Part shown: positions 2,696-31,813 of the stretch, one piece after another
Position numbering within the stretch: position 1 is the stretch's first letter
Layout: the number at the start of each line of letters is the position of its first letter
Source: Escherichia coli
GTDB lineage: Bacteria > Pseudomonadota > Gammaproteobacteria > Enterobacterales > Enterobacteriaceae
Length of the DNA: 64,000 nucleotides
Assembly: GCF_044324875.1 (NCBI RefSeq)
Contig: NZ_CP172185.1
Reading direction: 5' to 3' (one strand)
The notes under the pieces: model-generated
The model's database searches: none
Seen by the model: only the letters and a program-made list of their open reading frames with translations
What the model was told of the DNA's origin: nothing
Position numbers and translations under genes: made by a program

Positions 2696-4294
2696 TTAAC
2701 GTAACGGCATAATGGGTGTGATATGTCCATTATGCCGGGCGGGCGGCGGTTGGCTGCCCGCCAGCCATTTGGGAAAATCACATAGTGGCATCGGCTGTGC
2801 GTACAAATACCCTTGCAAAATATGGACGCCATGACGGCGCAAATATTTCGCCTGTTCTTGCGTTTCCACACCCTCCGCCACCAGTTCAATATTCAGTCTT
2901 TGCCCCAGTGCGATGATGATATCGGTCACCGTCGAGTTAACCGCGTCAGAACCTATAGCTGCGGTAAATGACTTATCAATTTTCAGCACGTCAGGACGTA
3001 ATGTTTCAAGCCAGGAAAACGAGCTGTTGCCGGTGCCGAAGTCATCAATCGCCAGTTTGACGTTTTTACGATGCAGCTCGCGGGCAATCCGATAATCAAC
3101 ATCCAGTAAGGCATCGCGTTCGGTGATTTCGAGGATCAGTTGCTGAATCGGGTGAGCGCTAAACCAGTACTGATTGAGATCTTTTATCAGCACACCACGG
3201 CGAAAATGGCTGGGTGCGACGTTAATGCCAACATGAAACTGACTACTCATTGGGAAAACATGCCGCTGACGGATGGTTTCTGCCATCACATAGCGGGTCA
3301 GTGGCACAATTAAATGATGTTCTTCCGCGATAGGAATAAACACATCCGGTGAAATCCAGCCCTGACGTGGATTGTTCCAGCGCAGCAAAATCTCTACACC
3401 AATACATTGCTGGCTGCGCGCATTAAGCAAAGGCTGGCAGAACAATTCGAACTCATGTTGCGCCAGGCCCAGATTGATCTCGCGGGAAAAGCTCATTCGG
3501 TAAGCGGTCGCCAGCCAGGCGATGTAGCCCACCAGTAAACTTAGCAGTACCGCCAGCGGTAATTGTGTTGGAAGATAGTGCCATGCCAGCGCCGTAGCCC
3601 CCGGGCCATTAACGTTAATGGTAAAAGGAAAGCGTTGCGAAGAAACCTGATAGTTTTCATTGTTTTCAGGTTGCGGAAGGGAATCTACCAGCCCATTACC
3701 ATAGAGCAAATGCCGACTGTCCACCGTCAGGCTGGCGCTACTGATTTGCGGCAGTTGTGGCTCAAGCAGCATTGCCGTCAGTAAGTCGATGTTAATCATC
3801 TCCATGACCCCAGCATTGCTACTGCTCGCTGCAGGCGTCCATTGAATCAAAACCGGACTGCCTTTAATCAGGACACGGTCGATCGTCAGGCGTAAAAGTG
3901 GTTGCGGTGCAGGAAGTTCAGCCAGAATGTCCACGACGGGCACATTGCGATAACCAAAAATGCTGGAGCAATAAAGTGTGCCGTCTTGCACCAGGCCAAT
4001 GGATCGCACAGTTTGGAGTTTTGCCGCCTGTTTACGTAATGGCAAATGGGCGACAGAGCAGGGCAGACCAATCAGCGGAAGCAAGACTTCGCTACCTGCC
4101 TGTAGGGGAAGCAGTACTTTATCTAATTCCTCTACAGCGTGATTAGCGAATTGTACTACCCGTTGTTGATTTAAGTTACGCTGTGAAATAAATCGCACGC
4201 TCAGGGTCGAAGCGAGCGTAACGAGTGCGCAAATCGTACAAACAATCATTCGATTACGGCGATAGGTTTTAATGATCCGTTGTGCTTTTTGCAT
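2696..4294 (-). CDS. pdeD: c-di-GMP phosphodiesterase PdeD (YoaD), CSS-motif periplasmic domain plus EAL domain
   Basis: ORF 2696-4324; start placed at the internal Met (MQKAQRIIK...) to give 532 aa; CSS motif (LYCSSIFGY) and EAL-domain region visible in translation. Confidence 0.88.
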   Translation of the reverse strand: MQKAQRIIKTYRRNRMIVCTICALVTLASTLSVRFISQRNLNQQRVVQFANHAVEELDKVLLPLQAGSEVLLPLIGLPCSVAHLPLRKQAAKLQTVRSIGLVQDGTLYCSSIFGYRNVPVVDILAELPAPQPLLRLTIDRVLIKGSPVLIQWTPAASSSNAGVMEMINIDLLTAMLLEPQLPQISSASLTVDSRHLLYGNGLVDSLPQPENNENYQVSSQRFPFTINVNGPGATALAWHYLPTQLPLAVLLSLLVGYIAWLATAYRMSFSREINLGLAQHEFELFCQPLLNARSQQCIGVEILLRWNNPRQGWISPDVFIPIAEEHHLIVPLTRYVMAETIRQRHVFPMSSQFHVGINVAPSHFRRGVLIKDLNQYWFSAHPIQQLILEITERDALLDVDYRIARELHRKNVKLAIDDFGTGNSSFSWLETLRPDVLKIDKSFTAAIGSDAVNSTVTDIIIALGQRLNIELVAEGVETQEQAKYLRRHGVHILQGYLYAQPMPLCDFPKWLAGSQPPPARHNGHITPIMPLR

Positions 4295-4424
4295 GCGGGC
4301 CACCCTGTAAGCGTATGGCGACAAACGCCTGACGCAACAGTGGAAGTGTAGTGGGGAAAATTACAGCAGACGAGAAAGCGGGGATAAATTCGCCCATCCG
4401 TTGCAGATGGGCGAGTAAGAAGTA

Positions 4425-5789
4425 TTAGTCACACTGGACTTTGATTGCCAGACCACCGCGTGAGGTTTCGCGGTATTTGGCGTTCATGTCCTTACCGGTT
4501 TCGTACATCGTTTCGATGACCTTATCCAGCGAGACGCGCGGTGCACTGGTGCGGCGCAGAGCCATCCGTGCGGCGTTAATCGCCTTCACAGAGGCAATGG
4601 CATTACGCTCAATGCACGGCACCTGAACCTGCCCTGCAACCGGGTCGCAGGTTAAACCAAGGTTGTGTTCCATGCCAATTTCCGCCGCCACGCAAACCTG
4701 TTCCGGGCTACCGCCCAGCAGTTCTGCAAGACCCGCAGCAGCCATTGAACAGGCAACACCCACTTCGCCCTGGCAACCAACTTCCGCACCGGAAATAGAG
4801 GCGTTCATTTTATACAATGCACCAATCGCGCCCGCTGCCATAACGTAACGGGTATAGATGTCCGGGCTGACCGATTCAATAAAGTGGTCATAGTAAGCCA
4901 GCACTGCCGGAACGATACCGCAGGCACCGTTGGTTGGCGCAGTTACCACACGACCACCGGCGGCGTTTTCTTCGTTAACTGCCAGCGCAAACATGTTTAC
5001 CCAGTCAATGACATTCATCGGATCGTTAGACAGTTTATCGCTGGAAACCAGCATCCGGCGCAGGGCAGACGCACGACGTGGCACGCGCAGCGGGCCTGGC
5101 AGTACACCTTCGGTGTTCATCCCGCGATCGATACATGCCTGCATGGTTTGCCAGACATGAGCGAAATACTCGTCGATCTCTTTCTTGCTGTGCAGCGCCA
5201 GTTCGTTCTGCATGGCGAGACCAGACAGCGAATAGCCGGTTTCATTACAGTACGCGAGCAGTTCGGTGGCAGATTTGAACGGATACGGCACGCTCACTTC
5301 GTTGGCGGCATCCTGACCAAAGTGTTCTTCATCGACGATAAAACCGCCGCCGATGGAATAATAAGTTTTGCTGTAGACGACTTCATCGCCATTATAGGCG
5401 TGGATTTGCATACCGTTTTCATGCAGCGGCAGGTTGCCGTTATGAAAACGCATCCCGTTGTCGCGCGGGAAATCCACTTCATGCCGTCCCTGTGCCAGCA
5501 GCAGACGTTCGCGCTCTTCTACGTCGCGAATAAAACCGGGAATACTGTCGATATCCACGGTGGCAGGTTCGTTACCTGCAAGACCCATAATAATGGCGAT
5601 ATCGGTGTGGTGGCCTTTACCCGTCAGCGACAGTGAACCATAAACGTCCACGGCAACGCGAGTAACGCTATCCAGTAAGCCTTTTTCGACCAGATCATCG
5701 ACGAACTGTTTACCCGCCTTCATAGGCCCTACGGTATGGGAAGATGAGGGACCAATCCCCACCTTAAACATGTCGAATAGACTAATCAC
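4425..5789 (-). CDS. sdaA: L-serine dehydratase 1 (iron-sulfur dependent)
   Basis: 454-aa [32 protein letters not shown]..., recognised as SdaA. Confidence 0.95.
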
Positions 5790-29810: not shown

Positions 29811-30632
29811 ATGATGCACAGGTTGAATCTCAATGGCTATGAACCCGACCGACACCATGAAGCCGCGGTCGCATTTTGTATTCACGCCGGAACGGATGAG
29901 TTAACCAGTCCTGTACATCAGCACCGCAAAGGACAGCTGATACTGGCGCTACATGGTGCAATTACCTGTACGGTGGAAAATGCTTTGTGGATGGTGCCAC
30001 CGCAATATGCGGTTTGGATACCGGGCGGGGTGGAACATAGCAATCAAGTGACAGCTAACGCTGAACTCTGTTTTCTGTTTATCGAACCCAGCGCAGTGAC
30101 AATGCCGACAACCTGTTGCACATTGAAAATATCGCCCTTATGCCGGGAATTAATTTTAACCCTGGCAAACAGAACGTCGACTCAGCGTGCTGAGCCGATG
30201 ACCCGCAGATTAATTCAGGTCCTGTTTGATGAACTCCCTCAGCAGCCACAACAACAGCTGCACCTACCCGTTTCTTCTCATCCTAAAATTCGCGCGATGG
30301 TGGAGATGATGGCGAAAGAGCCCGTCGAGTGGGGGTCATTGGGGCAATGGGCTCGCTTTTTTGCGATGAGTGAACGCAATCTTGCCCGACTGATAGTGAA
30401 AGAGACGGGGTTGAGTTTTCGCCAGTGGCGTCAGCAGTTACAGCTGATTATGGCGCTTCAGGGATTAGTGAAAGGCGATACTGTACAGAAAGTTGCTCAT
30501 ACGCTGGGGTATGATTCAACAACGGCCTTTATTACTATGTTTAAGAAAGGCCTGGGGCAAACGCCAGGCCGATATATTGCGGGATTAACTACTGTTTCCC
30601 CACAATCAGCGAAACCAGACCCGCGGCAATAA
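29811..30632 (+). CDS. nimR: AraC-family transcriptional regulator NimR (YeaM)
   Basis: 273-aa ORF with cupin-like N-terminus and C-terminal AraC HTH. Confidence 0.88.
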
Positions 30633-31035
30633 GCGGGCCAACCGGTACGCCGCGAAACAGCGCCACGCCCAAAACAGTGCCCACCAGCAGCCCGGCGACC
30701 AGTTGCGGCTGGCTGCCCATTAACGTCACGCCGCGCCCACCTAGCCAGGAGACAATAACGCCTACTGCAATTGCCACCAGCGATTTCCAGTTCAGAAACG
30801 AGTGAATCAGGGTTGAGGGCGGTAGCGTGCCGCTGGCGATGGGGGCCATAACGCCAATCGTCAGAATGATTATCCCGATACTTAGCCCCTGTTTTTCAAT
30901 CCACGGGAAAAAGGTGCTTAACGGTGTGACGCGGACAATGATTAACACCAGAATTGAAACGGCGACAGTGGTGTTATGACTGATAAAGCCCAGCGCAGCT
31001 AACCCGAGCAGGATCAGCAAAGTGACATCAAACAT
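30589..31035 (-). CDS. yeaL: DUF441/UPF0756 inner-membrane protein YeaL
   Basis: 148-aa hydrophobic ORF; its 3' end overlaps the 3' end of nimR by 44 bp (convergent). Confidence 0.88.
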
Positions 31036-31204: not shown

Positions 31205-31309
31205 ATGAACGATCAAATGTTCGTCGAGACACTGATTATCACGTCATCGTTTTTTGCCATTGCTGTTGTGCTGGTTTTGTCCGTTCTTCTTATCGAACGG
31301 ACAGGCTAG
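31205..31309 (+). CDS. yoaI: Small membrane protein YoaI (34 aa)
   Basis: [37 protein letters not shown]; its stop codon abuts the stop of convergent yeaK. Confidence 0.75.
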
Positions 31310-31813
31310 TTACGCAGTGCGGCGGAAATTGACCAGTTCTGGTTGCGCAATGCGCAAATAATCCGCGGTTTTCAAAATAACGGATTTATCCAGCATGCCT
31401 GCATTGAAGGCGATTTCATCAAATCGTTCGAAGAGTAGGGGATCGGCAACCAGTTTGAGTTTTGGATGGAAGCTGAAAGGGGTGATCGCGCCGAAGACAC
31501 AGCCTGTGAGTTCATCGACTTCCGCCGGGCTGGCCAACGAAGCGCGTAATCCGCCTATATGGCTGGCGAGTTGGCTCAGATCGGCCTGTTGATCGGCCGC
31601 GAGGATCGCCAGAACATGTTGATTTACACCATTGCCTTTGACTTTACATACCAGTGCCTTAGCCCCCTGGCCTAAAGCGGTGCCACGAATTTCTGACACC
31701 GCTTCACATTTACCTACCGCTTCATGGGTAACGACGCGGAAGTCAGCACCTTCTTGTGATAATAAAGCGATTAACCGCTGATGCGTCACGCTTCCTTTAG
31801 CCATTTCAGTCAT
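31310..31813 (-). CDS. yeaK: YbaK/ProX-type aminoacyl-tRNA deacylase YeaK
   Basis: 167-aa ORF MTEMAKGSVTHQRLIALLSQEGADFRVVTHEAVGKCEAV.... Confidence 0.88.
   Translation of the reverse strand: MTEMAKGSVTHQRLIALLSQEGADFRVVTHEAVGKCEAVSEIRGTALGQGAKALVCKVKGNGVNQHVLAILAADQQADLSQLASHIGGLRASLASPAEVDELTGCVFGAITPFSFHPKLKLVADPLLFERFDEIAFNAGMLDKSVILKTADYLRIAQPELVNFRRTA

Follow-up and report, generated by a model that had tools for sequence, protein, structure and literature searches.

Convergent coding overlap of nimR and yeaL in Escherichia coli, very likely a neutral by-product of stop-codon loss in nimR

The genes nimR (yeaM) and yeaL of Escherichia coli converge without any spacer and share the final 44 bp of their coding sequences. 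Both are real genes, and we consider it very likely that yeaL sets the sequence of the shared segment and that the overlap itself is a neutral by-product of the loss of a stop codon in nimR. In the window, which is the whole stretch of 64,000 nt of E. coli DNA analyzed here, nimR occupies positions 29811..30632 on the plus strand and encodes an AraC-family repressor of nimT (273 aa; ORF list, Pfam, RefSeq), while yeaL occupies positions 30589..31035 on the minus strand and encodes a DUF441 inner-membrane protein (148 aa; ORF list, Pfam DUF441, orthologues). The 44 bp common to both strands (30589..30632), which the initial annotation had already assigned to the two genes, were recovered exactly from the ORF coordinates and the sequence, and agree with RefSeq. 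On the nimR side, the overlap extends from two of the three bases of T260 through Q273 and the stop codon, on the yeaL side from two of the three bases of codon 135 through Q148 and the stop codon. As read from the sequence, the nimR stop (TAA, 30630-32) falls in yeaL codon 135/136 and the yeaL stop (TAG, complement at 30589-91) in nimR codons 260/261, such that each gene terminates inside the coding sequence of its partner. The two frames are phased with position 3 of yeaL codons opposite position 2 of nimR codons, position 2 opposite position 3, and position 1 opposite position 1; a change that is silent in one gene therefore always replaces an amino acid in the other.

The overlap as such is known: the identical pair with the identical overlap is annotated by RefSeq in strain 7/2 and likewise in K-12 MG1655 (yeaL, 1874352..1874798; nimR, 1874755..1875576), from which the 44-bp sequence shows no difference, and overlap at the transcript level has been published. 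Our search for literature on yeaL and yeaM jointly returned gene lists only. The nimR/yeaL locus was found in 5406 of 5426 complete E. coli genomes. The length of the overlap is statistically unremarkable; in the antisense phase of yeaL, stops occur at a frequency of 0.072 per codon, and the probability of encountering 13 open codons is about 0.38, compared with 0.51 for random sequence.

Pfam matches and homologue counts identify both genes as protein-coding. The DUF441 match of YeaL comprises residues 7-145 and profile positions 1-139 of 139 (E-value 3e-44), and since it spans the whole profile, the YeaL end is typical for the family; the search with YeaL retrieved 464 YeaL-encoding stretches. 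NimR matches HTH_18 (residues 180-255; E-value 3e-19), HTH_AraC (224-256) and AraC_binding (22-148), and the protein search yielded 1399 homologues; most NimR orthologues are 262-264 aa in length. The shorter length of most NimR orthologues is what could be expected if the overlap were an artefact of annotation or ORF calling and one of the two genes truly shorter in E. coli. We regard this as extremely improbable, as there is no in-frame nimR stop before position 30630, the yeaL stop at 30589-91 is family-typical, and the occurrence of the identical sequence in K-12 and thousands of genomes excludes a sequencing error. The initial annotation had linked an earlier end of one gene in orthologues with such an artefact; NimR is indeed shorter in other genera, but this is caused by a real stop-codon difference and not by a mis-called ORF.

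This difference became evident upon comparison between species, for which YeaL was used as query, one genome per species was considered (80 loci), and each ORF was walked to its first stop. An adjacent convergent nimR was present in 56 of 81 sequences (56 species), with overlaps ranging from -5 to 45 bp and, between genera, lengths of 44, 21, 20, 17, 6, 0, -1 and -5 bp. The 44-bp form, combined with a NimR of 273 aa, occurs only in E. coli and in members of the Citrobacter freundii group (13 Citrobacter-group loci). In 27 loci from Klebsiella, Raoultella, Enterobacter, Kluyvera, Leclercia, Lelliottia and others, NimR has 263-264 aa and the overlap is reduced to 17 bp; the NimR orthologues of most genera (264 aa) are 9 codons shorter than that of E. 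coli. A divergent minority lineage within E. coli also carries a 264-aa NimR and the 17-bp overlap (strain E69, L004; cluster P0004, 46 members). The overlap amounts to 20 bp in C. amalonaticus, 6 bp in Trabulsiella, -1 bp in Cedecea and -5 bp in Buttiauxella; in Salmonella it is 21 bp (S. diarizonae) or 0 bp (S. arizonae), with the NimR tail in a different frame after a 1-nt indel. YeaL, by comparison, has 148 aa and a near-constant C-terminus (ending in …/R-Q/S) in the loci of all of the approximately 80 species, including the 25 species in which no intact nimR adjoins yeaL, where length and C-terminal motif are unchanged. The end of YeaL is the family-typical end of the DUF441 domain, irrespective of nimR adjacency.

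The loci without an intact nimR are diverse. Several Escherichia lineages (L003, L005-L008; Escherichia sp., E. whittamii, E. albertii) have no nimR downstream of yeaL; in L003, an internal deletion that starts within the hairpin sequence described below has left only about 48 N-terminal nimR codons. In E. coli ZH142 (L002, locus 3112..4542), an IS1 insertion cuts nimR after about 58 codons, and yeaL, yoaI, yeaK and part of dgcJ are lost. In nimR-less loci of Kosakonia, Phytobacter and others (L031, L035, L037-L043, L045, L053), a different convergent ORF, apparently for a membrane protein, seems to end a few bases from the yeaL stop, and the yeaL 3' end would therefore be tightly packed there too.

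The length of the overlap can be traced to a single base. Position 30603 is the first base of both nimR codon 265 (CAA, Gln; 30603..30605, plus strand), where most other genera have a TAA or TGA stop, and yeaL codon 145 (GTG, Val; 30601-30603, minus strand). At the 17-bp loci, YeaL invariably has Ile145 (ATx) and nimR codon 265 is TAA or TGA (27 of 27); all 44-bp loci combine YeaL Val145 (GTx) with CAA or CGA at nimR codon 265, and reading continues to 30632 in E. coli. In C. amalonaticus, a synonymous change at yeaL Leu143 creates TAA at nimR codon 266. A yeaL change that is conservative, or does not alter YeaL at all, therefore shifts the NimR end by 8-9 residues. On grounds of parsimony, the ancestor probably had the 17-bp overlap, from which the 44-bp form would have been derived. 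We favor a scheme according to which the functional part of nimR would end at Tyr255, beyond which the ORF would simply continue until the antisense of yeaL chances on a stop. In most Enterobacteriaceae, this chance stop would be the one at nimR codon 265, resulting in the 17-bp overlap. An Ile145-to-Val exchange in YeaL (base 30603, A to G as read on the yeaL strand) would have turned TAA into CAA in E. coli and the C. freundii group, thereby adding 9 residues to NimR and enlarging the overlap from 17 to 44 bp. The shared sequence would be dictated by yeaL, whose final codons encode the conserved DUF441 terminus.

A different view would be that selection maintains the 44 bp for dual coding, the two C-terminal peptides being required and the DNA tuned for both. 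Such selection would be in line with the retention of the 44-bp form in nearly all E. coli and in the Citrobacter-group loci, as well as with the slightly lower position-3 diversity of yeaL codons 144-148 under nimR. Purifying selection was evident in one of the two frames only. Among 81 sequences, yeaL diversity at codon positions 1/2/3 was 0.116/0.038/0.491 in codons 1-134 versus 0.096/0.000/0.544 in codons 135-143; for the 44-bp group, the position-3 value was 0.360 both in codons 135-143 and gene-wide, and it was similar with or without an adjacent nimR. As diversity at position 3 is the same inside this segment and gene-wide, there is no detectable constraint on yeaL from the NimR tail, and the segment evolves as yeaL-only coding DNA. 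The synonymous sites of yeaL codons 135-143 are free to vary despite each change altering a NimR residue, and both E. coli and Citrobacter include natural NimR variants cut short at 264 or 265 aa. Together with a NimR tail that differs in length, sequence and, in Salmonella, frame between genera, these findings make dual coding very improbable. For the last five yeaL codons (the 17-bp core), position-3 diversity was 0.16-0.23 under nimR versus 0.50 without nimR, a comparison that covers 5 codons only and groups differing in amino-acid composition; we take this as a hint that NimR residues 260-264 may exert some constraint on yeaL.

The NimR side of the overlap lies in a part of the protein that would also fit a neutral origin. 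The C-terminal tail (residues 256-273; 30576..30629, plus strand) lies beyond the HTH domain, whose last residue is Tyr255, and varies in length and sequence; the overlapping codons (T260-Q273) all fall past the last Pfam domain. In an AlphaFold2 model of NimR built from 25 orthologues (mean pLDDT 82.8), the final helix comprises residues 252-260 and residues 261-273 have pLDDT values below 50, such that the tail is predicted to be disordered from residue 261 onward. The tail may well be dispensable, and the final 9 to 13 residues of NimR, described as a single-target regulator (repressor) of nimR/nimT (PMC5934670), should not be read as functionally informative in annotations. The initial annotation had proposed that the overlap constrains the C-termini of both proteins, along with a conservation check in orthologues. 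That check, carried out here, found the YeaL end conserved and the NimR end not, leaving the proposed constraint without support on the NimR side. Apart from the C-terminus, we noted an E. coli NimR variant of 292 aa (P0001) with a 19-residue internal tandem duplication in the cupin domain and an unaltered C-terminus.

Another feature of the locus is a hairpin upstream of the overlap on the plus strand, which on the minus strand would be positioned to terminate yeaL transcription. The terminator scan identified GGCCUGG-N8-CCAGGCC (30549..30570, minus strand) as the putative stem of an intrinsic yeaL terminator, followed by the U-rich tract UUUCUUAAAC (30539..30548, minus strand), the complement of nimR codons F244-K245-K246. 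The hairpin starts 18 nt past the yeaL stop, is embedded in nimR codons G247-R254, and has the architecture of an intrinsic terminator, with a 7-bp stem (6 GC pairs), an 8-nt loop and the U-rich tail. Its MFE is -14.1 kcal/mol; the folding z-score is modest (-1.65), and the tract contains just 5 U in 8. Three of the seven stem pairs are fixed by amino acids and the other four rest on wobble bases (G247 GGC, L248 CTG, P252 CCA, G253 GGC). Among 22 Escherichia/Citrobacter/Salmonella sequences, these four wobble sites have pi values of 0.09 or less, compared with a mean of 0.53, and are the four lowest-pi sites of the 66 fourfold sites with invariant amino acid in nimR (chance 1/C(66,4) = 1.4e-6), while the wobble sites of the loop vary freely (pi of 0.69 and 0.76). 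A terminator-like structure is found in 20 of 22 Escherichia/Citrobacter/Salmonella species versus 6 of 34 other genera. As the stem does not vary among members of the clade, the support consists in synonymous-site conservation and not in covariation. This pattern supports the notion that selection, acting on the RNA or DNA, preserves the hairpin, which would most simply be the yeaL terminator. It would then illustrate that a terminator can persist within the coding sequence of a neighboring gene via codon choice alone. The Term-seq supplements of Adams et al. 2021 (eLife 62438), as far as their text could be searched, have no entry for yeaL, nimR or yeaM.

The same hairpin does not qualify as a bidirectional terminator: it is located 60 nt upstream of the nimR stop and is therefore unable to act as nimR's own terminator, the plus-strand sequence beyond the stem (GATATATT) is not a U-tract, and the plus-strand terminator scan gave no site. 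For nimR, the consensus scan detected no terminator on the plus strand at all, and a relaxed scan gave just a weak site at about 31337. Among known RNA families, the only match was a sub-threshold Rfam hit to JUMPstart on the plus strand antisense to yeaL (30800..30829; 24.8 bits versus a gathering score of 35, E = 0.018); it lacks a visible ops motif and is probably due to chance.

With regard to the transcripts, the initial annotation had argued that overlapping 3' ends are forced by the gene arrangement. This holds, as full-length mRNAs must overlap, and yeaL-nimR is among the 165 convergent excludons of MG1655 listed by ExcludonFinder (NAR 2025, PMC12288877, Table 1), belonging to the core excludome of this strain (at least 50% of 58 transcriptomes; PMC12288877). 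Full-length nimR mRNA must extend to 30632, and a yeaL mRNA terminated in the U-tract would have its end at about 30541, which would give the two mRNAs a complementary stretch of roughly 90 nt or more (~30541 to 30632). The neighboring pairs yeaK-yoaI and yeaO-yoaF are likewise on the excludon list (PMC12288877). As a side observation, yoaI (31205..31309, plus strand) and yeaK (31310..31813, minus strand) converge with stops that abut without spacer (K-12, 1874078..1874182 and 1873574..1874077), and three consecutive convergent junctions (yeaL-nimR, yoaI-yeaK and yeaO-yoaF) are all tightly packed.

The excludon status raises the question of whether the close packing has been kept for a function, namely because antisense overlap allows mutual repression by transcriptional interference or RNase III cleavage, with the coding overlap being secondary. 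Membership in the core excludome is in line with this idea, as is the maintenance of the convergent arrangement, with overlap or near-contact, in 56 species; moreover, since no intrinsic nimR terminator is found on the plus strand before about 31337, nimR transcription probably enters yeaL in antisense orientation. We nevertheless consider a functional excludon unlikely: in many lineages, nimR is absent, deleted or replaced beside yeaL with yeaL itself unaltered, and ExcludonFinder classifies pairs by read coverage only, by which overlapping coding sequences necessarily score as overlapping. Even more speculative, and in our view quite improbable, is the combination of this idea with the hairpin. 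In this case, the yeaL terminator of the clade would be built into the codons of a conserved AraC-family motif in the C-terminal part of NimR (K-G-L-G-Q-T-P-G-R) and held there via the four wobble bases, nimR would have no terminator of its own, and the pair would be a true excludon in which nimR derepression silences yeaL by antisense transcription. If true, the DUF441 membrane protein YeaL would be tied to the nitroimidazole response.

Compared with known systems, the putative yeaL terminator resembles the intrinsic and bidirectional terminators of convergent genes (SEnd-seq; Wang et al., bioRxiv 10.1101/2022.10.23.513370) in having a GC-rich stem-loop and a U-tract at the junction. It differs from the bidirectional ones in being embedded among nimR codons ahead of the stop of that gene, with no U-tract on the plus strand, and would thus be unidirectional at best. 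Among the convergent excludons of MG1655 (PMC12288877), to which it belongs, the yeaL-nimR pair overlaps in the coding sequences, whereas most listed excludons overlap in their UTRs only, with a mean intergenic distance of 95 nt. Convergent overlaps account for about 7% of the overlaps between well-characterized genes and are typically kept only in close species (Pallejà et al. 2008, PMC2478687). Returning to our preferred reading, the stop-codon loss dictated by yeaL, we see in nimR/yeaL a standard and ordinary case of this kind, with little significance beyond bookkeeping. It can serve as a worked example of how a conservative Ile/Val or a synonymous change in one gene shifts the stop of its partner, and of selection on just one of two overlapping frames. 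Like the convergent overlaps described as arising by stop loss and 3' extension (Rogozin et al. 2002; Pallejà et al. 2008, PMC2478687), it consists of two real genes with shared 3' ends; like the members of the stop-loss class (PMC2478687), it would have originated from a point mutation at the stop and is conserved among close relatives only. There is no essential difference from this class, except that for nimR/yeaL the causal base can be named and the change in the partner is a conservative Ile/Val exchange.
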